A program made the translations under genes and the position numbers. A DNA stretch of 64,000 nucleotides from contig CAWDSK010000006.1 of NCBI GenBank assembly GCA_963804995.1, positions 1,472,001 to 1,536,000 of the forward strand. The letters run 5' to 3'. Source of the stretch: an uncultured Acidobacteriota bacterium (GTDB lineage: Bacteria; Acidobacteriota; Terriglobia; UBA7540). The notes under the pieces are model-generated. The model did not search any database. It was not told the DNA's origin and was given only the letters and a program-made list of their open reading frames with translations. Below, piece after piece: positions 22,308 through 36,646 of this stretch. Each line of letters opens with the position of its first letter. Positions within the stretch are counted from its first letter, which is position 1.

Positions 22308-22644
22308 GCCTTGATGAAGCAACAGGAGGGCCAAGAAGGGGGTTGCTGGTGTCAATCTAACTTATTGATATGGATTGGGTTGTATGTTCAGTGTTGAAAT
22401 CTTTAACTGGAATCAGGGACATAAGGGGCCAGAAGACACGGCCATGGCGCGAAATCCACCACGCTGTATGGGCAAATCTCTGACATAATGACCCAATTCG
22501 GCGGATTTGGCAGTGGGTCGGTTTGAGGTAGGGGCAAGCCTCGTGCCTGCTCTCCCCGTCGGCATGGCCGACTTCCGGGTACCCACGGGGTACCCCTACG
22601 ACACGTGCCATGGGCATCTTGCCCATGCCGGGTCACGGGCAGGA

Positions 22645-22773
22645 GAAGGTGTGAAAAAATCGTCTAAAACCTTCTCACCGCAGAGACGCTGAGGCGCAGA
22701 GGAATGAAAATAAAGGTCCTTTTCTCTGCGCCTCAGCGCCTCCGCGGTAAGGATACTATTTCTTCACACCTTC
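22645..22773. mobile_element. 129-bp MITE inserted in a REP, GGA target duplication (second copy)
   Basis: TIR GAAGGTGTGAAAAAAT / ATTTCTTCACACCTTC; GGA both sides; same host site as 14801. Confidence 0.8.
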
Positions 22774-22825
22774 GGATGCCCGTGGCACAACGCAGGGACC
22801 AGCGGCGCTCGGCCCCCGCGAAAGA

Positions 22826-23050
22826 ATGTCAAAGGGCAAGCCCCTCGATGCGGTGCTCATGGCGGTGGTGGATCTGCTCGCCACCGACGCGACGTTGCCG
22901 CACCGCAACTTCGATCATCCGCTTTCAGGAGCATGGGGCGATTTTCGCGATTGTCATCTCAAGCCCGACCTTATTCTTATCTACCGAAGGCCGGATGCCG
23001 CCAGTCTGGAACTGGTCCGCCTCGGCTCGCACAGCGAGCTTGGCCTGTAG
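22826..23050 (+). pseudogene. YafQ-family toxin, apparently N-truncated, no antitoxin
   Basis: DHPLSGAWGDFRDCHLKPDLILIY..LVRLGSHSEL; the usual N-terminal strand and helix are missing. Confidence 0.75.
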
Positions 23051-23496
23051 GCTAAGCGAGCGTTTATACCTCATGAACAAACACCCCAGATCAATCAGGT
23101 GGGTGGCCACGGTGTCGCCGCGGCCGAAAGTCCGCCAATCTTAATGGCGGGCGGCCTTTCGTGACCGTGGGCTTTACCTTCGATCACGAACCCACGGTCA
23201 ATTCTAAAGACGAATTGGCCGTAGCCAATCTCAGGGCTGGCTGGCGCAGAACCGGGTTTCAAGCTCTGCGACTTTCGGATCGGCCGGCTGGCGTAGAGCC
23301 GCCTTTCAAGCTCTGCGGCTATTAGGGGCACACCTGAGTGCCGCGGACATACACAACAGCGGGGTAGCCACGGTCACTGCTTTTGTGACCGTGGGCTTTT
23401 CCTTCGATGACGAGCCCACGGCGGGCTGGCGCAGAGCCGGGTTTCAAGCTCTGCGGCTCTTTCCGCGCCAATCGCTTCGACAGGATTGCCTCAGCG

Positions 23497-23931
23497 CTAG
23501 AGCTGGAGGGCGCGAAGCAATTCCAGATCGGACAGTATTTGAATCCCGCGCGCGGCGCTGAAACGTCGCACTTCTTCCGTGAAAAAATCCGCATCTCGGG
23601 TACAGATGATGTCGGCGTTTCCTGCCAGTGCGGTACCGAGCACGGGTTCGTCCGCTGGATCTCTCAGCAACTTCTCCGGCACGGGCAGAGGATGGACGAG
23701 GGTGGAAACGCGGGCCAGATAATCCAAATACTCGGAAATATCCAGGGAGGTCAGGCCAGAACTCTTCAGAACCCTTGGGTAGGCCAGAATCCGCCGCAGT
23801 TCTTGCAGCAAATACTGTGAAAGGATGAGAACATCAGAGCCTGTGGCCACGGAAAGTAATCCACGGCGGGCAGGACCGTGGGCCAATTGGTGGGCGCGGG
23901 CAAGGACATTGGTGTCGAAAACAATTCTCAC
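23497..23931 (-). CDS. PIN-family toxin (PIN_3-like)
   Basis: IVFDTNVL, RDPADEPVL.TA, ICTRDADF. Confidence 0.9.
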   Translation of the reverse strand: MRIVFDTNVLARAHQLAHGPARRGLLSVATGSDVLILSQYLLQELRRILAYPRVLKSSGLTSLDISEYLDYLARVSTLVHPLPVPEKLLRDPADEPVLGTALAGNADIICTRDADFFTEEVRRFSAARGIQILSDLELLRALQL

Positions 23932-24215
23932 TCGCGTTCCCGGTATCCGGGGCGCACGTTGCGAATGGCCTCGTCGAGGGACTCTTCCATTTCCTCAGGA
24001 GATGCGCCCTTTAGTTTTTGGTCAATCCGATGGAAGTGGTCCTCCAAATTGCGCCCCGCTTCCGTGTGAGCTTCTCCTGTGGGGGCGGCGTGGGGGACAA
24101 ATGTCATGATACTTACTTCCTCATCGTCTTGCAGGGAGCGTCCCAACTCCGCCTCCAAAGCGGCGCGAGTCTCGGTTTTAAGCTCACTGGCCCTATGGAT
24201 CAAAAGGCTCGGCAT
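23928..24215 (-). CDS. Putative antitoxin
   Basis: Small acidic ORF overlapping the PIN gene by 4 bp; GGAGG SD. Confidence 0.7.
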   Translation of the reverse strand: MPSLLIHRASELKTETRAALEAELGRSLQDDEEVSIMTFVPHAAPTGEAHTEAGRNLEDHFHRIDQKLKGASPEEMEESLDEAIRNVRPGYRERE

Positions 24216-24299
24216 GATTTCAACCTCCCTCCGGAGTCCGTCACTAAAGTTTAGCATGTCTTAAGGCCCGCAAGTAGCACTGACCTGCTGTTCAAGCTT

Positions 24300-24360
24300 C
24301 GGTCCGGCCGTAATGAGGATGAGATAATTCAGGGGGGGAAGTGTCCGCGATAACAATCAT
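24300..24360 (-). pseudogene. DUF3368 (PIN) toxin N-terminal remnant
   Basis: Reads MIVIADTSPLNYLILI if one G is removed from G7 at 24332-24338, then similarity stops; ATG overlaps the UPF0175 stop. Confidence 0.75.
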
Positions 24361-24611
24361 TGGCTGCTGAACTCGCGGCTCGTTTCGGTGTCGCGATCCA
24401 GGTCCTCGAGGGTGGAGTTCAGGTACACACCGTGCTCCTTGAGGAACCCGTCGACCTGCATTCTCGTTCCGTAACCCAGGATTTTCCTGACCTGCTCCTC
24501 GGTGAGTTTGCCGGAGCGATAGCCTTCCAGCGCGAAGCTCTCCAGGAGGGCGCGCGGCAAGTCCTTAAGTTCTCCGGCAATTTCGTCGGGCAGTTCCAAA
24601 GTGATTTGCAT
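24357..24611 (-). CDS. UPF0175-family antitoxin
   Basis: MQITLELPD..ALEGYRSGKLT..GFLKEHGV..EDLDRD; AAGGAGGT SD. Confidence 0.9.
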   Translation of the reverse strand: MQITLELPDEIAGELKDLPRALLESFALEGYRSGKLTEEQVRKILGYGTRMQVDGFLKEHGVYLNSTLEDLDRDTETSREFSSQ

Positions 24612-24978
24612 AGGCTGTGGTTACCTCCTTAGCTTCACAACCCTTGCTTCAGAACACCATTTTAGCATCTCGATTGCTCCTGCCCGCACAAAATTACTTG
24701 CGCGGGTAGCGATCATGGTCACTGCTATCGTGACCGTCGGTTTTCCCTTCGATCACAAACCCACGGTCAATTCCCAAGACGAATTGACCGTGGCTACCTC
24801 CGGGTCACACAACCTCAGGCGCCGATCGAAGGGGTGAATGCAATCAAAGGATGTAGGGGTAGGGCTCCCGACTTCGTCGGGACAGGTTGCCCTACCCGGC
24901 GTTCCGCAGGGTGAATGCGGAACCAGGGGGCGGCAAGCCGTCCCCCTACACCTTGCGCAACTCGATCACCAGCTGCGC

Positions 24979-25314
24979 TTACTGGGGCGTGTCATCGCTT
25001 TCTTTTTCGAGGATGTTATTGATGTCGCGTTTTCCGTGCAGTACCCGGACCACCCGAACCCCGCCCTCGTGAGCCAGGTAATAGACGCGCACATCCTCAA
25101 ATCCCTTGACGGGCCAGGATCTCAGACCCCGCAGAGCTTCCCGGGAGAAGCGCTTGGGCGCGCCGCCCTGCGGCGTCCGGATGATCGCCTCCATCGTTCT
25201 CCGCACGGCGCTTAGGAAGCGTTCGGCCACTTTCGCCTTGTCCTGCTCAACCAGGTAGTAGCGGAACTGGCGCAGGATGTCATCCCTCGCCGCTGGGAGG
25301 ATAATCGGTTTCAA
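24979..25314 (-). CDS. RelE/ParE-family toxin
   Basis: AARDDI..Y..AERFL..LRSWPVKGF..VVRVLHGKRDI. Confidence 0.9.
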   Translation of the reverse strand: MKPIILPAARDDILRQFRYYLVEQDKAKVAERFLSAVRRTMEAIIRTPQGGAPKRFSREALRGLRSWPVKGFEDVRVYYLAHEGGVRVVRVLHGKRDINNILEKESDDTPQ

Positions 25315-25580
25315 TGCTTTTTCCGCGCGCGGTGTTTACGTGCAATCACGGTGGCCTCGTTCTTAAGTTCCCTCCAGAACTCTTTGGTCAGCGGAATTTC
25401 TTCGCCGGATGTCAAGCCTTCAACCAGCAACGCTTCCAGCCTGGCATCCTCCTCCCTGGCCCGAGCTTCGCGCAACAGGGTGCGGAAGTACTCGCTGACG
25501 TTGCCGTAATCCTTGGTGGCAATCTGGCGCTCCACAAAGCCTTTAAGCGACTCGGGGAGGGAGATGGTCACGGTTTTCAT
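25311..25580 (-). CDS. ParD-like ribbon-helix-helix antitoxin
   Basis: TISLPESLK.FV..YGNVSEYFR.LLR..LEALLVEGL.SG. Confidence 0.9.
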   Translation of the reverse strand: MKTVTISLPESLKGFVERQIATKDYGNVSEYFRTLLREARAREEDARLEALLVEGLTSGEEIPLTKEFWRELKNEATVIARKHRARKKH

Positions 25581-25967
25581 CGGCGCGCCTCCAATCTTAT
25601 CCTCTTGGTGCATCGTATCCTACCTCTTAACTATTCCCAATAGATAAGATAGCACCGGGTCTGGTCGTTGTAAAGCCGTATCCATAGTTAGTGCATTCGT
25701 GACCGTAGGCTTTCCCTTCGATGGCGAACGCAATTCCCAAGACGAATTGAGAAGGGCAGTGGCGAGTGACAAGTGACGAGTGACGAGTCGAACCGCAAAG
25801 ATTCTTGTGTGAGGCGCCGATCGAAGGGTGAATGCAATCACGAGATGTAGGGGTAGGGCTCCCGACTTCGTCGGGACAGGTTGCCCTACCCGGCGGTCCG
25901 CAGGGTGAATGCGGAACCAGGGACGGTCCGTCGGTTGACGGATTCCCGTACAACCGCCCGCTGCCGC

Positions 25968-26297
25968 TTACGAGGTACAGCCGAGAGAGAAGCCCATGGC
26001 GGCGCAGATTTCTTTCATTCGCTCCGGGCTGAGCAGCGCCACACGACGGCCCAGATGGGCCTTTGACACGGTGACGACGTTGTGCAGATTAACGGCGCAC
26101 GCGCCCTTCATTCCATCCGCTTCGGTCAAGCGGACCTCCGACGGAACACCCCGGATGGTGGAAGTGATGGGGGCCACCGTGACGCCGGACAAGTACGCGA
26201 TCGCGCTCTCCCGCGTGAGCACGACCACGGGTCTCTGCTTGTCCGGACGGGGGAATTGATAGAGGCGAACTTCTCCGCGTGCTATCGCTCCGGCCAT
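25968..26297 (-). CDS. PemK/MazF-family toxin
   Basis: RGEV, DKQRPVVVLTR, VTVAPITSTIRG.PSEV. Confidence 0.92.
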   Translation of the reverse strand: MAGAIARGEVRLYQFPRPDKQRPVVVLTRESAIAYLSGVTVAPITSTIRGVPSEVRLTEADGMKGACAVNLHNVVTVSKAHLGRRVALLSPERMKEICAAMGFSLGCTS

Positions 26298-26515
26298 GCT
26301 GCCACCTGTTCCCAATCCGTCGACTCGGCGGAGACATCGGGATGCTCCGCGTAGCCCGTGCGGTCGCGGGCCTCAAGTTCTTGCGACTCGAGACGTTTCA
26401 GGTACAGGCGCAGCGCCTCGCGAACCAGCGCCGAACGGTTCACCCTCGCCCGCCGGGCGGCTCCGTCGGTAGCGCGGAGGAGTGTCGAACCCAGGACAAC
26501 TTGGATGGTTTCCAT
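26282..26515 (-). CDS. RHH antitoxin
   Basis: TIQVVL..LL..NRSALVREAL; upstream GTGGAGTATACTCCAC palindrome overlaps a -10 TATACT 7 nt before the ATG. Confidence 0.85.
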   Translation of the reverse strand: METIQVVLGSTLLRATDGAARRARVNRSALVREALRLYLKRLESQELEARDRTGYAEHPDVSAESTDWEQVAAWPER

Positions 26516-26949
26516 ACTGTGGAGTATACTCCACACTGGACTCAACAGTCTACAGGCGCGTGGGCGGTAGGGGGCTTTGCCACGCAGCGCTTGACCTTAT
26601 ATTCGCCTCCCTGTCGTCGTGACCGTGGGCTTTTCCTATGATGACAAACGCAATTCCAGCCGCTTGAGTTTGATGCGGTCGGCGTGAACCTGGGCAAGGT
26701 CGTAGTGCGCCTGCTGCGTAAGGTGGTAGCCACAGTCAGCGAATTTCTGACTGTGGGCTTTTCTCACACGTGCCTCCCCAATCCGAAGCGGCTGGCCCTC
26801 GCCGGAAGTTCATGTTTTTGGAAAGAAGAACCCGCGGTCAGGAAAGGTCGCCGCGGCGACACCGCGGCTACCAGCTATATCCGGGTCACACAATCTCAGC
26901 CGCCGTTCGAACGGGTGAATGCAATCCGCGTCAACCGACAGGTCCACTG

Positions 26950-27318
26950 TCATGCGGGGTGATAGAGCTTGACTCCTGCAGCTAACGCAGCCCGGGCAAG
27001 TCTTCCGTCCAGTGTCCATAACTGGCAGTTCGAAAGCAGCGCGGAAGCCAGGAGGTGCGCATCGATCCAACCGATGCCGAGGCCCCAAAGCTTGCGGGCT
27101 TCAACCAGCCGCACTACCTCCTCATGGGTTGCGGAAACAGCGGAGGGGAGAGCTTCGAGATCGCTCAGAATGCGCGCCCGGGCCTTCAAATTGCCACATG
27201 CCAGTTCACCCCTGACAAACGGATGCACCATGACGAGGGCCTGGCTGAGCAAATCGCCAAGCTTCGAACCACTTTTACGGAAGTGGGCAATCCAAACTGA
27301 AGTATCAACAAGAATCAT
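26950..27318 (-). CDS. vapC: VapC PIN toxin
   Basis: MILVDTSVWI, GELACG, GIGWIDAHLLASA, LWTLD. Confidence 0.93.
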   Translation of the reverse strand: MILVDTSVWIAHFRKSGSKLGDLLSQALVMVHPFVRGELACGNLKARARILSDLEALPSAVSATHEEVVRLVEARKLWGLGIGWIDAHLLASALLSNCQLWTLDGRLARAALAAGVKLYHPA

Positions 27319-27515
27319 CGCTTCGCCCCGGTCCTCCGCCTCGGCACGGAGCGCAACCCGGGCTCGGAGCCACCCAGCGCGGCCAAACGTCGAGCGGCTT
27401 CGCGCGCAATCAAAGCCTCTAACCCGGCCCGCACCAATGCGGTCTTTTTCCGGATCCCGGTCAATTGACTGGCGTGCTCCAACAGATTCTGATCGATAAT
27501 AAGTGTTGTCCTCAT
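27315..27515 (-). CDS. vapB: VapB antitoxin (DUF2191-like)
   Basis: MRTTL.ID..LL..A..TG..KTALV..GL; TTGACC-17-CATACT promoter 7 nt upstream. Confidence 0.9.
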   Translation of the reverse strand: MRTTLIIDQNLLEHASQLTGIRKKTALVRAGLEALIAREAARRLAALGGSEPGLRSVPRRRTGAKR

Positions 27516-27711
27516 ATGCCTGAGTATGCATGATTGATGCATATTGGTCAAACCCTATCGCGAGTTCGGCGGGCTGGCGTACCTGAGGCACTCCGGGTTG
27601 GGGACCATCAGAACCGGTCGGCGCTACTTGCTGGACGCCGCCAATTGGCGAGGCAGATTCGCCCCCTGAAGATCAAGGTGAACCGCTGTCGGGGATTTCG
27701 CTGCCGGGCTT

Positions 27712-28242
27712 TCAGGGACCGTCTTTGGAGATGACAAATACCGGCCTGCGCATCCGGGAGTCCGCCACGCGCGGGAAAGGTATCCAGTTGAAGGATGGAA
27801 TCAAACGGTGATACGGGCCAAATAACTTTACGACCAGCATGGCATACGAGAGAAGGATCTGAAAGCGCATGGTGAGCCAGAGCAGGCGCCAGCTCGCCAT
27901 GGAGTCGACCCCCGCCACCTCATCGGGCGCAAGCTCTGGCGACCGGATCAATTCACTGAACGATTCCTGCAAAGCTTTCAGCCAATGGAGTGCCAGTTGT
28001 TTGCGGGCGCGAGCCAAGGAATCCGCCAGCTTGGGGAAGGCGAGATCCTGGCGCAACCAGCGATCATCAGAGGGATCGAAGATGCGTTCCGAAAGATCCA
28101 GCCAGCGGGCATTCCCGAAATGCGGGGCGCAGTTCTTTTCGGGCACCCCCTCATCCCTTTTTTCAGTCCGGGTCCTGGTGAGTAACGCCAAGATCAGGAC
28201 GAGGAAGGCAATCGCAACGGTGACGTAGATTAGAGTTATCAT
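27712..28242 (-). CDS. Hypothetical membrane-anchored protein
   Basis: N-terminal TM and a second hydrophobic segment; ATAA overlap with the upstream gene. Confidence 0.75.
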   Translation of the reverse strand: MITLIYVTVAIAFLVLILALLTRTRTEKRDEGVPEKNCAPHFGNARWLDLSERIFDPSDDRWLRQDLAFPKLADSLARARKQLALHWLKALQESFSELIRSPELAPDEVAGVDSMASWRLLWLTMRFQILLSYAMLVVKLFGPYHRLIPSFNWIPFPRVADSRMRRPVFVISKDGP

Positions 28243-28994
28243 TTGTGTAGAAACCTGGACAGAGCGTTATTGAAACGTTCAAGTTCAAGACCCAAGGTTT
28301 CAGAGTTGCCTTCGGCCACTGCCGGCGCCGGGCGCGATCCCGGCATGGGCGCAAATTCCCAAAGTCCAACCATCCAGACCAGCAAACAGAGCGTGTAGGC
28401 CATGGGAGACATAACCCAAAGAATGCTGGTGTACAAATTCCCAAAGTACTCGACGCAGGCGAAATTGGCGATGTTCACCCCTAGGTAAATGGAAAATCCT
28501 AACATCAGGCCCGCCACGTTTTTGCCTAGCTTAAGACCAAAGTGGCGGGCTGCGTAGAAAAGAACGGCGAGAATTATAGCCTTTGTCAGCGAAGCCCGGA
28601 GAGCAAAATCGAGCAATGCCATTTGCATGCTGGGAGAATGCAAAATCGTCGGGAGAATGTAAACGGCGCCGAAGCCAATGGAAATCGCGATCGTTAGAGC
28701 GCGCCCCAAGTTTCGTATGGCCGGGAAGGGTTGGAAGATGTGGTCCGAGATTTCCGCCAGCACCGCGAACTCCACCACGATGCTAAGCACATAAGAAAAC
28801 CAGTAAACCGACGCGTGTAAATCCGGCCGCGTCCAATAAACTACGTACCCTGCAACTGTGCTACAGAACAGGAAAATCAGATACGAGTAAAAAAGCGGAA
28901 ACAGCTTGGCGTGCCGGTCCCCAACCCCTCTCACGAGGAGAAGAGTTACAAGCACCAGTGCGCCGAAGCTAGTTACGAATCCAAGAGAAACCAT
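28239..28994 (-). CDS. Hypothetical polytopic membrane protein (~7 TM)
   Basis: About seven hydrophobic helices; no cytoplasmic catalytic domain. Confidence 0.8.
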   Translation of the reverse strand: MVSLGFVTSFGALVLVTLLLVRGVGDRHAKLFPLFYSYLIFLFCSTVAGYVVYWTRPDLHASVYWFSYVLSIVVEFAVLAEISDHIFQPFPAIRNLGRALTIAISIGFGAVYILPTILHSPSMQMALLDFALRASLTKAIILAVLFYAARHFGLKLGKNVAGLMLGFSIYLGVNIANFACVEYFGNLYTSILWVMSPMAYTLCLLVWMVGLWEFAPMPGSRPAPAVAEGNSETLGLELERFNNALSRFLHK

Positions 28995-29057
28995 ACGCCT
29001 ATCCGGGATGGGCGGACCGCGAGTCCCGCTTCTGCCCATCCTCGAATAGAAGCAAAG

Positions 29058-29120
29058 TTAAGCCAAAGGGGGCATGGGCATCGGTCCGACACCTTCCGGA
29101 TTCCTACGTGAGCATAGCAT
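29058..29120 (-). CDS. 20-aa peptide MLCSRRNPEGVGPMPMPPLA
   Basis: AAGGAGGT SD 7 nt before the ATG; TTGGCA-17-GATAAT upstream; below the ORF-track cutoff. Confidence 0.7.
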   Translation of the reverse strand: MLCSRRNPEGVGPMPMPPLA

Positions 29121-29144
29121 AGTCGTTACCTCCTTTCCAGCGCG

Positions 29145-29173
29145 ATTATCTGCACTAAAGTACTGGGTGCCAA
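29145..29173 (-). promoter_or_regulatory. Putative sigma-70 promoter for the peptide operon
   Basis: -35 TTGGCA (29168-29173), 17-bp spacer, -10 GATAAT (29145-29150). Confidence 0.5.
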
Positions 29174-29795
29174 CTGCCCTGTGGATATTTCAAGGATGTT
29201 TGATAGGGGCAGGGTTCAGGACCATGTGGGACACGGCCGCTTTCCTGTTTACTAATCCGACAAATTCGTCTCCAGAATCTCAGGGTCGGAAGGCCTCAAC
29301 TTTACGGCCCAGTGGAAACCCCCGGAAGGCTGTCGGGATCGGCGCAGCCATCTTAGATGTAATAGGTTAGGAGGGACACGGATTTTCAGACGTCAGCCTG
29401 CCATTATGTCGGAAATTGGGCGGCCTCCCGTACCTATAAGTTTTCGGTAAGGGATTGTATTAAAAAATATTAATCGAGAACTGATTACCTTATGGTCAAT
29501 ATCCCAGAATTAGATAAAGGAAGTTTAACGTCCTGCGGATCACCACGTGGGACTGCCCTGCAAAATAGTATCACAATTGACAACTATCAATTTTCGGTTA
29601 TTTCGGGAGATTCTTAGTGAGGTCGGTCTTCATGGCAGACTTTTTGGCGCTTCCTGCGGCGGTCAGGAAACTCTGGATACTTACTATCCTAAATCTAACC
29701 CTATCAACACTTTTCAACTTCTTTCTCCCTTTAACGACCCCTATAAACCTTTGTCAAGCTGTAGCGTCGATGTCTGAATTAGCAATGTTGGGGTA

Positions 29796-31091
<1,296 letters not shown>

Positions 31092-31094
31092 AGT

Positions 31095-32018
31095 TCACCG
31101 GATCACCCGATGATTTACTTCCATTGCCTCTCTCAGCACTTGCGCAAGGCTCTTTCCTTGCTGATGTAACTCTAGAACCGCTTCCTGTCGCGTAATTTTC
31201 TTTACAACCATCAAGAGCGCTACAGGCAGGCTGCGACCCGAGTCCTTTAGGGCACTGGCGGCCGCGGCCGGGCTCGCACCGGTGAGTTGCACCAGAATTC
31301 CCTGGGCGCGTTCCCGCAGTTTCTGGTTGGTCAGTTGAACGTTGATCATACGATTGGAAAGTACGCACCCCAGCCGCACCATGGTGGCAGTAGAGAGCAT
31401 GTTCAATGCGAGTTTCTGTGCTGTCCCTGACTTCATGCGGCTGGACCCCGCAATGACCTCAGGTCCCACCACGGTCAGGATAGTGACATCCGCGAGCGCT
31501 TCGAGCGGGGCATCGGGGTTCGAGGTAAGAGCGGCAACCTTCGCACCGAGTCGTCGCGCATATCGCATCCCGCCCAGCACGTAGGGTGCACTGCCGCTGG
31601 CGGAGATTCCTACCAGAAGGTCGTGACGAGTGAAATGGATTTTCTTCAGGTCACGAACGGCCTGCTCAGGGTCGTCCTCAAAGTCCTCCGCCGAGCGGAG
31701 CAGAGAAACCGGGGCCCCTGCCAGGATAGCCACGATCTGATCCGACCCGAAAGTCGGCAGACACTCCGCGGCGTCGAGAGCCCCCAGGCGGCCACTGGTG
31801 CCGGCACCCAGGTAAACCACTCGCCCACCGTTTTTCAGGGCGTCCACCGCCAGGTCGACGGTGCGCGCGATCTGGGGGAGCGCCTTGCGAACTGCTGGCG
31901 CAACCCGGTGATCCTCGCGATTAATGATGCGCAGAATTTCCCGCGTAGGCTTCGTATCCAAGGCGGCCGAAGCCGGGTTCCTTCGTTCGGTAATGCGCTC
32001 ACGCGGTTTTGATTTCAT
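31095..32018 (-). CDS. murQ: N-acetylmuramic acid 6-phosphate etherase
   Basis: TERRN, GAGTSGRLG, DAAECLPTF, GPEVIAGSSRMKSGTAQK. Confidence 0.95.
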   Translation of the reverse strand: MKSKPRERITERRNPASAALDTKPTREILRIINREDHRVAPAVRKALPQIARTVDLAVDALKNGGRVVYLGAGTSGRLGALDAAECLPTFGSDQIVAILAGAPVSLLRSAEDFEDDPEQAVRDLKKIHFTRHDLLVGISASGSAPYVLGGMRYARRLGAKVAALTSNPDAPLEALADVTILTVVGPEVIAGSSRMKSGTAQKLALNMLSTATMVRLGCVLSNRMINVQLTNQKLRERAQGILVQLTGASPAAAASALKDSGRSLPVALLMVVKKITRQEAVLELHQQGKSLAQVLREAMEVNHRVIR

Positions 32019-32196
32019 CGGGGTTGATTTCGTCTCACTGCAGAGGCGCGGAGGCGCAGAGGAGTGAAGGTCAAGAGGCAAAACGCAAAATACAATGGCT
32101 AGAAGTCAAAGCCGATTTTGCATTTAGACTTTTGCGTCTTCCCTTTTGACCTTGTTCTACTCAGCTTCTCCGCGCCTCTGCGGTGAAATCCGTTTA

Positions 32197-33987
32197 TTAC
32201 TGCTTTCCCGAAAGGGTCTCCCACCCGCGCCGCGACAAATCCCAATAGATTGCATATCCGGAGAGGCCGGCAATGGTCAGGAACAAGACGCCTATGCCGC
32301 TCGAGCCCAACAGGAGTTTGCCAATGCCGAACAGTGTCATGTAGACCATGATGCAGCCGAGCGCCCAATCCATCAAATTATACCAGCCATCCTCCGTGGG
32401 AGCGACTTCCGGGGCGAGCTTGGCGATGTGCTTCCAGCCGGCCACGCCCGGCCGCACGCGGCGGTAAAACTGCAGGAGTTTCGTTTCGGGCTCCGGCTCC
32501 GTCAGGAACGTCGCCCCCAGCCACACGAGCGTCGTGACGGCCACGGTCAAGACCAGGTTTTTGCCAAACAGGTTCGGGTCGGAGGCGGCAAAGGGGCTCA
32601 CAAACCTGAGGGTGATGGAGGTCACGGCCGCCGTCGTCATCGCGGAAATTTCCGACCAGGCGTTGATTCGCCACCAGTACCAGCGCAGTAGGTATACGGC
32701 TCCGGTGCCCGCGCCAATGTTCACCACCATGTCCCAGCCACCCGCCACCGTCTGCATGATATAGGAAACCGCCGCGCCCAAAACCATAAGGCCCATGGTG
32801 GCAACTTTAGAAATCGTCACGTAATGACCTTCGGAACGTTGGCGTACCAGGAAGCGGCGGTAGAAGTCGTTCACGATATAAGACGAGCTCCAGTTCAATT
32901 GCGTCGCAATGGTGGACATGTAGGCAGCCGCAAAGGCGGCGAGCATCAGGCCGCGAAAAGCCGGCGGCATATAATCCACCCAGACTCGAATGAAGCCGCC
33001 CTCGGCGTCTGCGCCCGGCCGGCTCAGTTCCGGGTAAAGGACTACCACAGCCAGGGCCGTCAAAATCCAGGCCCAGGGCCGCAAAGCGTAGTGGGCGATA
33101 TTGAACCAGAGAGTGGCCAACAACGAGTTCTTCTCATCCTTGGCGCAGAAGATGCGCTGCGCTACGTAGCCGCCACCGCCTGGCTCCGCTCCGGGGTACC
33201 AGACTGACCACCAGTACACCCCGATGTAGACGAGGAAGGTCATGAGGGGCATCCAGGGCGAATGCAAATCGGGAATGAAGGAGAGGATGGATCCGGAGCC
33301 TCCTACCGCCGCGCCCCGGGCGGCATCGACGGCGGCAAGCTTGGTCTTCAGCATGGTCATGCCGCCCACGGCATGGACCGCGTAGAACGCCAGGACAATC
33401 AACATGGCCATCTTCAGGATGAACTGCACCAGGTCCGTCCACAGCACACCCCATAGACCGGATATGGAGGTGTAAATGGCTGTGATGGTCATGCAGATGA
33501 CCACGGCCCAGAATTTGGGAACGTTCAGTGATATCCCCAGGATTTTTTCCATGGCCAGATTGACCCAGCCCAGAATGATGCAATTAATAAGGAGGCCGAA
33601 ATAGAGCGCGCGAAAACCCCGCAGGAATGCAGCAGGCTTGCCGGCGTATCGCAACTCAACCAGTTCCACGTCGGTAATGATTTCGGCCCGGCGCCACATG
33701 CGCGCGAAAAAGAAGACCGTCATCATGCCGCTAAACAGAAAACTCCACCAGAACCAATTCGCGGCAACGCCGTGCCGCACCACCTGCCCGGTCACCCAAA
33801 GGGGCGTGTCGGCGGCGAAAGTTGTGGCCACCATGGAAGTGCCTGCCAGCCACCAGGTCACTTCGCGCCCTGAAACAAAGAAATCGCTCGTGCTGGCGCT
33901 TGCCTTCTTCCGGTAATAGAGCCCGATGAGCAGGTTGATCAGAAAATAGCCGGCTACCACAATCCAATCCGCTAATGTGAGTTTCAT
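32197..33987 (-). CDS. Sodium:solute symporter family protein
   Basis: WWLAGTSMVATTFAADTP, many TMs, AAYMSTI. Confidence 0.92.
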   Translation of the reverse strand: MKLTLADWIVVAGYFLINLLIGLYYRKKASASTSDFFVSGREVTWWLAGTSMVATTFAADTPLWVTGQVVRHGVAANWFWWSFLFSGMMTVFFFARMWRRAEIITDVELVELRYAGKPAAFLRGFRALYFGLLINCIILGWVNLAMEKILGISLNVPKFWAVVICMTITAIYTSISGLWGVLWTDLVQFILKMAMLIVLAFYAVHAVGGMTMLKTKLAAVDAARGAAVGGSGSILSFIPDLHSPWMPLMTFLVYIGVYWWSVWYPGAEPGGGGYVAQRIFCAKDEKNSLLATLWFNIAHYALRPWAWILTALAVVVLYPELSRPGADAEGGFIRVWVDYMPPAFRGLMLAAFAAAYMSTIATQLNWSSSYIVNDFYRRFLVRQRSEGHYVTISKVATMGLMVLGAAVSYIMQTVAGGWDMVVNIGAGTGAVYLLRWYWWRINAWSEISAMTTAAVTSITLRFVSPFAASDPNLFGKNLVLTVAVTTLVWLGATFLTEPEPETKLLQFYRRVRPGVAGWKHIAKLAPEVAPTEDGWYNLMDWALGCIMVYMTLFGIGKLLLGSSGIGVLFLTIAGLSGYAIYWDLSRRGWETLSGKQ

Positions 33988-34201
33988 AAGTACAGGTTCC
34001 TTTGATAATTTTCCAATCCTTGCATTGCTACGCGGAGCCCGCGAGTATATAGCAAAAGAGGTTCGGGCCGAAGGACAACTGCTGGCACTTCAACACAGAG
34101 GTCGCCGGGAGGCTCCGTGCCCTCTGTGCCCTTTACTGGTGAAATCCTTCTTGGGTTGCGGCCCACAGGCGCGCTAGGGTACCTTGTTGGTGAGGGAAAC
34201 C

Positions 34202-36646
34202 GTGATTCACAAACGAGGGTTCTTGCTTTGTATCTTGATCTCCGGCCTCTTGGCCAAATCCTGGATTGCCCCCTCGGCACCTTGGGCGGCCTCTGCCGAA
34301 GCCTCCGCGGGAATGGATGAGCAGCGGCTGGCGGGAATTGCCGCTCTGGCCGAGGCCTCGATTCAGGCCAAGCGCATTCCCGGCGCCGTCGTCCTGGTCG
34401 GCCATGAGGGCAAGGTGGTTTATCGTCAGGCTTTTGGTGATCGCTCGATTTTGCCCGAGCGGCGGCCGATGACTGTGGACACGATCTTCGATATGGCCTC
34501 CCTGACCAAGGTAATTGCCACCACGACGGCGGTGATGCAGCTTGTTGAGCAGGGGAAAATCGAGCTCAGCGCTCAAGTCGGCGATTACTGGCCGGAATTC
34601 AAGGAAAACGGCAAAGACCTGATTACCATCCGCGAACTGATGACGCACTATTCCGGCTTGCCTCCGGACCTGGAACTGAAACCCGCCTGGACGGGCTACG
34701 ACACGGCAATGCAGATGATAGTCGCGACCAAGCCAAACACGCCGCCGGGCACGCGTTTCATTTACAGCGACATCAATTTTGAAACGCTGGGTGAAATCGT
34801 CCACCGCGTTTCCGGCGAACCGCTGGAGGAGTACTGCGCGGAACACATTTTCAAACCGCTGGGTATGAAGGACACGCAGTTCAGGCCTCCGACTTCCTTG
34901 CGGCATCGTATCGCGCCCACGCAATACGAGCATGGCAACAGCGGACCGATTCTTTGGGGCACCGTGCACGATCCCACCTCACGTTTCATGGGTGGAGTGG
35001 CCGGGCACGCGGGTCTGTTTTCGACCGCCGACGATCTTTCCATCTTCGCGCAAATGCTACTGAACGGCGGCACATACAATGGCGTGCGCATCTTGAGCCC
35101 ACTCTCCGTGGAAAAGATGAGCACTCCGCAAACACCTCCAAACAAGATGGTGTTGCGCGGCCTGGGGTGGGACCTCGATTCTCCCATCGCTTCGAACCGC
35201 GGCGACCGCGTGGGCCCGATCTTCATTACCAACCGGGGGGATTTGTTCGATGTCGGCTCATACGGGCACACAGGGTATACGGGCACCTCCCTCTGGATTG
35301 ACCCGGTGACCAACACGTATGTGATCATACTAACCAACCGAGTGCATCCCGACGGCAAAGGCGAAGTCGTGCCGCTGCGCACGGGGGTCACGACGCTGGT
35401 GGCGGCGGCGCTGGGGCCGCTTTCCGCGCAGCAAGTTCTGGACAGCCGGCGGTCGCTGACCAGCTACTTTGAGCTGATGAAGAGTTACCGCGTACAGGGC
35501 CTGCGCAATGGCAGCGTGAAGACGGGCATCAACGTCCTGGCGGCGGAACACTTTGCCCCCCTGGCGGGGAAGCGCGTGGGGCTGATCACCAATCAGTCTG
35601 GCCTGGCAAGCGATGGGAGCCGCACCATCGATTTGCTGGCGCACGCGCCGGACGTGAAGTTGGTAGCGCTGTTCAGCCCCGAGCACGGACTGGCGGGCGC
35701 CGCGGAGGCAGGCGCCATGGTCGCTTCCACGCGCGACGCCTCGACCGGCGTGCCTGTCCACAGTCTGTACGGGGAGGTCCAGCGCCCCACCGACCAAATG
35801 CTGGAGGGCATCGATTCACTGGTCTTTGACATCCAGGATGTTGGCGTGCGCTTCTACACTTACATCACCACCCTCGGATATTGCCTGGAAACGGCGGGGA
35901 AGAAGGGTATTGACTTCTATGTGCTTGACCGGCCGAATCCAATCAACGGCGTGGACGTCGACGGGCCGGTGCTTGACCCGGACCTGCGCTCGTTCACCGC
36001 GTATTTCCCCATGCCCATTCGCCACGGCATGACTGTGGGCGAGCTTGCGGAAATGTTCAACCGCGAAAATCACCTGAACGCCAAGCTGCATGTGGTGAAG
36101 ATGCGCGGCTGGGAGCGGACGGATTGGTTTGACGAGACGGGCCAAGCCTGGATTAATCCATCCCCGAACCTGCGAAACCTGACGGAAGAAACCCTATATC
36201 CGGGTGTCTGCCTGGTGGAAGGCTCAAACGTCAGCGTGGGCCGCGGCACCGATACCCCCTTTGAAATCGTCGGCGCCCCCTGGATCAACGGTCGGGAACT
36301 GGCCGCGCATTTGAACGGCAAGAAAATTCAGGGAGTGCGCTTCTTGCCTATGGATTTCAAGCCGCTCTCGGACACTTTCGCAGGAGAGTTGTGCCATGGC
36401 GTACAGATCGTGCTGCTCGATCGTCAAGCCTTCGAGCCGACCGAAATGGGAGTAGAAATGGTTGCGGCGCTCAATAAGCTTTTTCCGAACGACTACAAAT
36501 TGGGTGAGGCGCTGCGCCTGATCGGCAGCCAGGCAGCCGTGGAATCGATTCGCGCCGGCGAAAGCCCCTCCCGTATTTGGTACGATTGGCAAGAAGGCTT
36601 GGAGAGATTTAAGAAGCTTCGCGCCCAGTACCTGCTTTATCCCTGA
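34202..36646 (+). CDS. Beta-lactamase-like serine hydrolase fused to NamZ (DUF1343) exo-beta-N-acetylmuramidase
   Basis: Signal peptide; SLTK, YSD, GHTGYTG; FSPEHG, DIQDVG.RFYTY, DRPNP, SPN, GRGT. Confidence 0.92.
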   Translation: MIHKRGFLLCILISGLLAKSWIAPSAPWAASAEASAGMDEQRLAGIAALAEASIQAKRIPGAVVLVGHEGKVVYRQAFGDRSILPERRPMTVDTIFDMASLTKVIATTTAVMQLVEQGKIELSAQVGDYWPEFKENGKDLITIRELMTHYSGLPPDLELKPAWTGYDTAMQMIVATKPNTPPGTRFIYSDINFETLGEIVHRVSGEPLEEYCAEHIFKPLGMKDTQFRPPTSLRHRIAPTQYEHGNSGPILWGTVHDPTSRFMGGVAGHAGLFSTADDLSIFAQMLLNGGTYNGVRILSPLSVEKMSTPQTPPNKMVLRGLGWDLDSPIASNRGDRVGPIFITNRGDLFDVGSYGHTGYTGTSLWIDPVTNTYVIILTNRVHPDGKGEVVPLRTGVTTLVAAALGPLSAQQVLDSRRSLTSYFELMKSYRVQGLRNGSVKTGINVLAAEHFAPLAGKRVGLITNQSGLASDGSRTIDLLAHAPDVKLVALFSPEHGLAGAAEAGAMVASTRDASTGVPVHSLYGEVQRPTDQMLEGIDSLVFDIQDVGVRFYTYITTLGYCLETAGKKGIDFYVLDRPNPINGVDVDGPVLDPDLRSFTAYFPMPIRHGMTVGELAEMFNRENHLNAKLHVVKMRGWERTDWFDETGQAWINPSPNLRNLTEETLYPGVCLVEGSNVSVGRGTDTPFEIVGAPWINGRELAAHLNGKKIQGVRFLPMDFKPLSDTFAGELCHGVQIVLLDRQAFEPTEMGVEMVAALNKLFPNDYKLGEALRLIGSQAAVESIRAGESPSRIWYDWQEGLERFKKLRAQYLLYP

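Follow-up and report, generated by a model that had tools for sequence, protein, structure and literature searches.

A gene encoding only 20 amino acids, on the minus strand of the 64,000-nucleotide stretch of DNA from an uncultured Acidobacteriota bacterium analysed here (the window), heads a three-gene unit that we read as the sensing part of a peptide-signalling circuit without a kinase: a proline-rich peptide devoid of a signal sequence is predicted to bind a periplasmic pocket of a GPCR-shaped 7TM protein. We put the probability of this reading at roughly 0.6. The sensors known for characterised bacterial peptide signals are histidine kinases or cytosolic RRNPP proteins, and most are from Gram-positives. 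If the reading is true, a stand-alone GPCR-shaped peptide receptor wired without a kinase to a transcription factor would represent a new signalling route and, the receptor family being present in 67 of 121 genomes of the class, would bear on the origin of peptide-sensing 7TM receptors. The locus would be its smallest version, comprising a synthesisable 20-mer, a five-gene set, a candidate operator and a covarying residue pair (phi/181), and the missing signal peptide opens the exit of a leaderless signal from a diderm cell to direct test.

The earlier note had offered two explanations of the locus, a signalling module of peptide, membrane receptor or maturase and partner, loosely like AgrD/AgrB, or a polyproline-stalling leader peptide acting as an attenuator. 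The module is supported by a conserved three-gene unit, the predicted fold of the 7TM protein, homologous secreted precursors, clade support and peptide-receptor covariation; the Agr likeness and the attenuator both fare badly, as set out below. The peptide and the 7TM protein together likely constitute an undescribed acidobacterial signalling system, one in which the peptide would need an unusual exit route.

Layout of the locus

The Shine-Dalgarno element (SD), the 20-aa ORF, the hairpin and the ORFs of the 7TM and partner proteins all lie on the minus strand where the earlier note had placed them (Table 1), and the upstream DNA, described there as AT-rich and non-coding, has a GC content of 46.5% against 58.7% for the whole window. 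The promoter proposed there, TTGGCA-17-GATAAT (29173-29145, minus strand), is present in the window, but only its -10 half stands up to comparison: GATAAT is kept in relatives, whereas the -35 hexamer TTGGCA (29173-29168) is not.

Table 1. Features of the peptide-receptor locus (positions in the window)
Feature	Position	Strand	Remarks
Candidate palindromic operator	29187..29205	none	family consensus TTCAA-N6-TTGAA
Promoter core, AGTAC element and -10 hexamer GATAAT	29145..29164	-	conserved in relatives
Shine-Dalgarno AAGGAGGT of peptide gene	29128..29135	-	conserved in relatives
Gene of signal-less 20-aa peptide MLCSRRNPEGVGPMPMPPLA, core P-x-P-phi-P-P; predicted ligand	29058..29120	-	conservation, motif, covariation
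GC-rich hairpin filling the intergenic space	28999..29049	-	lacks a U-tract; the SD-less 7TM start follows a few nt later
251-aa 7TM protein, N-out/C-in, with C-terminal cytoplasmic helix; predicted peptide receptor	28239..28994	-	predicted GPCR-like fold
176-aa partner, N-terminal TM helix and helical hairpin; predicted transducer	27712..28242	-	start overlaps 7TM stop (ATGA)

Upstream of this promoter, 81-86 nt 5' of the peptide ATG, lies a palindrome that is found at all 38 loci from which the motif was derived and at 10 of 11 held-out loci (48/49 together), against a background rate of 53 in 5000 random 130-mers. It is perfect in other genera, and the copy at the peptide promoter is the top PWM site of the genome; the palindrome is likely the site of a dimeric regulator. 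A wider regulon was not found, the 45 pattern matches in 30 family genomes falling mostly within coding sequence, and no operator-led gene is common to the 30 loci that were read. Nor was the operator found 5' of XRE genes (one match with one mismatch among 10), and 40 distant loci yielded only five one-mismatch matches.

The surroundings of the locus can be described separately. Between the partner gene and genes resembling pyruvate/2-oxoacid ferredoxin oxidoreductases lie about 5 kb of small toxin-antitoxin-like genes (window 22400-27600), among which Pfam confirms a vapBC pair at 27551-26950; in most relatives of the genus the oxidoreductase-like genes follow the partner directly, and the region is an insertion hotspot. 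On the other side (29796-36646) are murA (EPSP_synthase family), a murQ-like SIS protein, a sodium:solute symporter and a beta-lactamase-fold/NamZ fusion. These genes form a cluster resembling one for peptidoglycan recycling, which is linked to the locus within the genus and not in other genera.

The peptide gene

The check suggested in the earlier note, namely to collect homologues of the 7TM protein and scan upstream of them for small ORFs, turned up an SD-led Pro-rich peptide gene at 49 of 51 orthologous receptor copies from the Terriglobia family to which the host belongs. Such an ORF precedes 38 of the 40 copies in the first set (from which duplicates and three metagenome loci identical to L001 had been dropped), the remaining two being second copies of tandem duplications, and it precedes 11 of 11 copies at held-out loci fetched after the pattern was set. 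In the first set it lies 56-67 nt 5' of the receptor gene except at the broken L037, and across leaderless loci its product is either 18-24 aa long or multi-core, tandem arrays of two to four cores occurring in six of the 49 leaderless precursors. PxPxPP is present in 45 of 49 peptides from 10 genera (36/38 in the first set, 9/11 in the held-out set), and among the 249 SD-led ORFs of 12-35 aa in the genome it occurs in one, the 20-aa ORF of the window. Across the peptides, every one of the four conserved Pro positions is encoded by all four Pro codons, and pS is 0.57 against a pN of 0.28 (27 single-core peptides, genus-level set). On this comparative sequence evidence the 20-aa ORF is a real, conserved gene. 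Receptor orthologues are present in 22 of 24 genomes of the same genus and in 21 of 61 of the family.

Two other ways of reading the ORF were considered and rejected. Readthrough of the stop codon, which would fuse peptide to receptor and is in frame in the window, is ruled out by relatives, in which the two genes stand in frames 0, 1 and 2. An upstream extension with a hidden leader, open in L001, L018 and L076, needs one extra G, is non-hydrophobic and is closed at most loci.

Some individual loci depart from the common layout. In L008 and L007 receptor and partner are tandemly duplicated, and the second copy, which has no peptide gene, is near-identical to the L013 receptor. In L037 (genome G013) stops interrupt the receptor and the peptide ORF runs on to 34 aa, through decay or assembly error, and the second module of that genome likewise contains stops.

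The 7TM protein and its partner

The earlier note could place neither membrane protein in a characterised family, and this holds: neither has a Pfam or NCBIfam family, the receptor's failure to match one extends across 131 members, and the receptor has no match among PDB sequences. Searches of the Atlas with the family returned only unnamed Acidobacteriota clusters, PHROGs has no entry for receptor, partner or XRE-type regulator (see below), and no phage match was found. Three homologues of the 7TM protein come with source names of Terriglobia or Acidobacteriia, which points to an Acidobacteriota host. The AlphaFold model of the receptor comprises seven helices and a C-terminal helix (pLDDT 90, pTM 0.86). 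Its best VIA structural match is the designed GPCR fold GLF_18 (Z 15.8, rmsd 3.8, 211 residues aligned), followed by LYCHOS (Z 14.8), TAS1R (Z 14.1) and the oxytocin receptor (Z 12.9), values to be read in the knowledge that Z scores of 13-14 can arise for helical bundles. Foldseek returns GPCRs throughout, none with E below 0.068, with Ste2 (7ad3) in row 2 at E 0.074; rhodopsins match too. By the positive-inside rule, Lys/Arg counts place the N-terminus on the outer side and loops 1, 3 and 5, together with the tail, on the inner side. At fold level the predicted model has both the helix arrangement of a GPCR and an N-out/C-in bundle. Sequence homology to any GPCR family was not found in Pfam, among PDB sequences or by Foldseek (E >0.06), and as far as the model goes the resemblance of the 7TM protein to GPCRs is one of fold only.

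Conservation is higher in the cytoplasmic half of the receptor (0.71) than in the periplasmic half (0.59), and this is so in the leaderless and the secreted groups alike, as is the possession of the periplasmic aromatics Y60, Y64 and W65. The family stands alone, in that no longer forms were seen among 7999 candidates, which is weak evidence.

The second membrane-anchored protein was correctly described as translationally coupled, the 7TM and partner ORFs overlapping by ATGA. Its gene is present at 49 of 49 leaderless loci; a fold search gave a best Z of 7.0, which is uninformative.

Covariation of peptide and receptor

For covariation we used 47 peptide-receptor pairs, leaving out L037 and L217, whose receptors are broken. 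The variable residue phi of the P-x-P-phi-P-P core goes together with receptor residue 181, which lies where TM6 is predicted to end on the periplasmic side: Ala181 accompanies an aromatic phi in 27 of 33 pairs and a non-aromatic phi in one of 14, the pair in the window being Met at phi and Val at 181. Each of the two positions changes 11-12 times on the tree. Against 1500 simulated traits on the tree, with the best association taken over 667 features, the familywise p is 0.002, a value to be read with the post hoc choice of label in mind; the aromatic label was one of six tried after inspection, and after correction p is about 0.012. With three of the six labels, no column reached significance.

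An independent-pairs scan puts position 181 at the top of 563 features, with 61, 186 and 124 next, all of them predicted to be periplasmic; the independent-pairs sign test for 181 itself (5:1 of 8 pairs, p 0.22) is not significant. A contrast test on residue volume favours 174, 123 and 124 and does not rank 181, and the enrichment of the top eight columns for periplasmic positions reaches p 0.08-0.11 only. We regard this as moderate evidence that the peptide contacts the outer face of the receptor.

Secreted relatives and an apparently divided cassette

A profile built from 131 receptor homologues finds the family in 67 of 121 class genomes and in 16 of 151 phylum genomes. Outside the leaderless clade, the ORF upstream of the receptor usually encodes one to six Pro-rich cores behind a hydrophobic signal peptide; 15 distant receptor rows have no precursor passing the filter. 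In a tree of 85 rows the 39 leaderless-type receptors form one branch with support 100/99. Hydrophobicity is at most 1.0 in 37 leaderless rows and at least 1.9 in 31 signal-bearing rows, with no overlap; the maximum over nine residues does not exceed 1.1 at leaderless loci, and a signal peptide is absent at all 49 of them. We infer that the leaderless peptide is homologous to secreted, ligand-like precursors and that the signal sequence was lost in one clade, where "loss", the tree being midpoint-rooted, is argued from the signal-bearing neighbours.

The secreted loci differ from the leaderless ones in their neighbours as well. An XRE-type regulator (weak XRE/HTH matches) sits beside the receptor at 26 of 34 signal-peptide loci and at none of 49 leaderless loci, and the gene of a protein that we call X does so at 25 of 34 and none of 49, respectively. 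Protein X is about 165 aa long (L120:7050-7556, G000 C3), has no Pfam or NCBIfam family and no credible PDB match, and carries invariant D, R, Y, H, G and H residues that are suggestive of a metal site or an enzyme. The genome of the window also holds XRE and X, still convergent, at C3:754326-755555, with XRE at 754326-755084, and among 61 family genomes both occur in 21 of 21 with the module and in four of 40 without it, counts that come from kin, some of them incomplete; the co-occurrence of XRE could also reflect other partners. Since the pair flanks the receptor at signal-peptide loci and is unlinked yet co-occurring here, an ancestral cassette of five genes seems to have come apart into two pieces, with XRE and the His/Asp protein X now elsewhere. 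XRE would be the protein that binds the palindrome. Judged from recurring neighbours, the leaderless clade has neither a linked kinase nor a linked response regulator.

The same genome carries a second module of the family on contig C9 (L118:5516-7006), whose precursor is secreted and has three cores and whose partner protein is a different one; this module is found in 23 of 24 genomes of the genus and also in family members devoid of the leaderless module. Its cores, IGxxPxPxPP, are unlike the leaderless core, and the idea that one ligand serves both modules was dropped, the cores differing, by eye, within genomes. Elsewhere (L119:4545-6439, G000 C5) a phage-repressor-like XRE gene diverges from one for a signal-less 18-aa peptide with a PMPWPP core, accompanied by a hairpin and by a membrane protein of 176 aa that weakly resembles the N-terminus of the receptor; this set may be a separate leaderless version carried by a mobile element.

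Proposed mechanism and alternatives

In the mechanism that we favour, the strong SD and the stable hairpin would yield much peptide and little receptor. The peptide would cross the inner membrane independently of Sec, by a general exporter or upon membrane damage or lysis; neither an exporter nor a protease gene recurs near leaderless loci. Its PxP(phi)PP core would dock near the TM3 aromatics and the end of TM6 (residue 181), whereupon the conserved cytoplasmic face may relay the signal to the translationally coupled partner and from there to the X/XRE pair, and XRE, acting on the palindromic operator, would close a feedback loop. One can go further and suppose a genetically encoded danger signal: the GPCR-fold receptor would read a kin-specific, protease-resistant cytoplasmic peptide, which would gain access to the periplasmic pocket only through a breach of the inner membrane or the lysis of a sibling. 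The arrangement would have a single origin in a secreted pheromone system that lost its signal peptide, and would run beside the second, secreted system in the same cells. We consider this fuller version rather unlikely. Full-text searches for the system or for a lysis signal, in a library with few subscription papers, turned up no description of the system.

The attenuator explanation turns on the intergenic hairpin, whose arms GGATGGGC (29041-29034) and GCCCATCC (29013-29006) are extended by an outer stem reaching 29049/28999. The whole 171-nt region folds no better than shuffles (z -1.2), and the hairpin itself is conserved, with double-sided changes in eight of 12 consensus pairs (33 sequences). 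Were the ORF a cis-acting, mgtL-like polyproline leader on which stalled ribosomes govern how the two membrane genes are transcribed or translated, one would understand why Pro-Pro falls close to the end of so short an ORF, why its spacing to the receptor gene is fixed, and why the hairpin ends 0-9 nt before the SD-less 7TM start (37 loci); upon termination the accessibility of the start region does rise by more than 0.2 at six of 37 loci, and PMC5021804 describes a precedent. However, none of the 37 loci has the U-tract of an intrinsic terminator after the hairpin, and RNA switching by ribosome position is not seen in our models: with the ribosome footprint masked at the last Pro (stalled) or at the stop (terminating), mean hairpin pairing is 0.91 and 0.91, respectively, against 0.83 for naked RNA, so that within this equilibrium treatment of 37 loci the hairpin forms alike in all three. 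Multi-core variants, a core matching that of homologous secreted precursors, covariation of the peptide with a receptor residue, and downstream genes with no link to proline or Mg supply all speak against it too, making it very unlikely. It is more likely that the hairpin damps translation of the receptor and protects the peptide message, and it likely sets a high ratio of peptide to receptor.

An AgrB-like role for the 7TM protein, in which it exports or matures the peptide instead of or besides acting as its receptor, would account for the exit of a signal-less peptide, and covariation establishes contact, not direction. Yet no Cys, His or Ser is conserved in the 7TM family, the lack of Cys and His arguing against a protease or maturase; its 131 members include no match to AgrB or a protease family; and it accompanies Sec-exported precursors, which need no exporter, and in other families is linked to the regulator pair. 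We judge this role clearly improbable. The peptide might, on the other hand, never leave the cell and give feedback from within, its target being the cytoplasmic face, the partner, X or XRE. The lack of a signal peptide throughout the leaderless loci, the more conserved cytoplasmic half of the receptor and the reported precedent of S. mutans ComS (PMC6211226) would allow this; the best covarying receptor positions are nevertheless predicted to be periplasmic, and Y60/Y64/W65 are retained there in both groups, which leaves such a signal distinctly improbable. Least credible is a peptide gene that is the decaying relic of a secreted precursor, left behind while the receptor came to sense something else. 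The signal sequence is indeed gone, and L037 combines receptor stops with an extended peptide, but the motif persists across 10 genera along with the synonymous excess, the strong SD and the operator, and we hold decay to be extremely unlikely.

Comparison with known systems

The Agr system comprises AgrD, AgrB, AgrC and AgrA, with a small peptide gene adjoining membrane-protein genes, and the locus resembles it in just this adjacency. The likeness to AgrD/AgrB drawn in the earlier note ends there. An Agr peptide closes its ring at a conserved Cys (or Ser) with a charged tail behind it, whereas position 3 of the peptide here is C, S, Q or another residue and the core has no Cys, so that no peptide Cys is conserved; the 7TM protein lacks conserved Cys/His and catalytic residues; and no histidine kinase, response regulator or LytTR regulator is linked. 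Fungal alpha-factor and Ste2 are a peptide and its class D GPCR, and here, too, a peptide that is multi-core in relatives is paired with a 7TM protein that stands alone and whose predicted fold is GPCR-like. The differences are that the locus is bacterial and without sequence similarity to Ste2, that precursors of its clade have no signal peptide, and that its output appears to be the membrane partner and X/XRE, not a G protein. The SHP/Rgg systems of streptococci combine a short peptide precursor and promoter feedback with a cytosolic receptor and have no 7TM protein.

In ComS/ComR, as PMC6211226 describes it, a short peptide precursor and promoter feedback recall the locus, and release of ComS/XIP in S. 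mutans is reported to need lysis, but the streptococcal receptor is cytosolic and no 7TM protein features there. In the LCP class, to which SIP/RopB belongs, a tiny ORF has no secretion signal, the route of export is given as unknown and the regulator binds a palindrome in the peptide promoter (PMC10518010), much as the locus has a signal-less ORF and a palindrome in its promoter. According to the same source, SIP has 8 aa, LCPs are described in Firmicutes and the receptor is a cytosolic RRNPP protein reached after re-import; the peptide of the locus, by contrast, is 18-24 aa or multi-core, Pro-rich, made in a diderm host and paired with a membrane 7TM protein, and at leaderless loci the neighbours are the 7TM protein and its membrane partner, with no adjacent cytosolic RRNPP receptor.

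The HdrRM/BrsRM LytTR systems (PMC6193735) link a membrane protein to a transcription factor with no kinase between the two and have an autoregulatory site 5' of the -35, features matched by the coupling that we propose and the candidate site upstream; the locus differs in having an XRE-type HTH rather than LytTR, a palindrome rather than direct repeats, and a genetically encoded peptide. E. coli DgcT and CdgI (PMC10760455) likewise present bacterial 7TM domains structurally like GPCRs, there fused to cyclases and with no encoded peptide ligand, whereas the 7TM protein of the locus stands alone with its peptide encoded beside it. The system fails membership in Agr, the attenuators, the LCP class and the LytTR systems, and the locus would be a leaderless, split variant of a new one.
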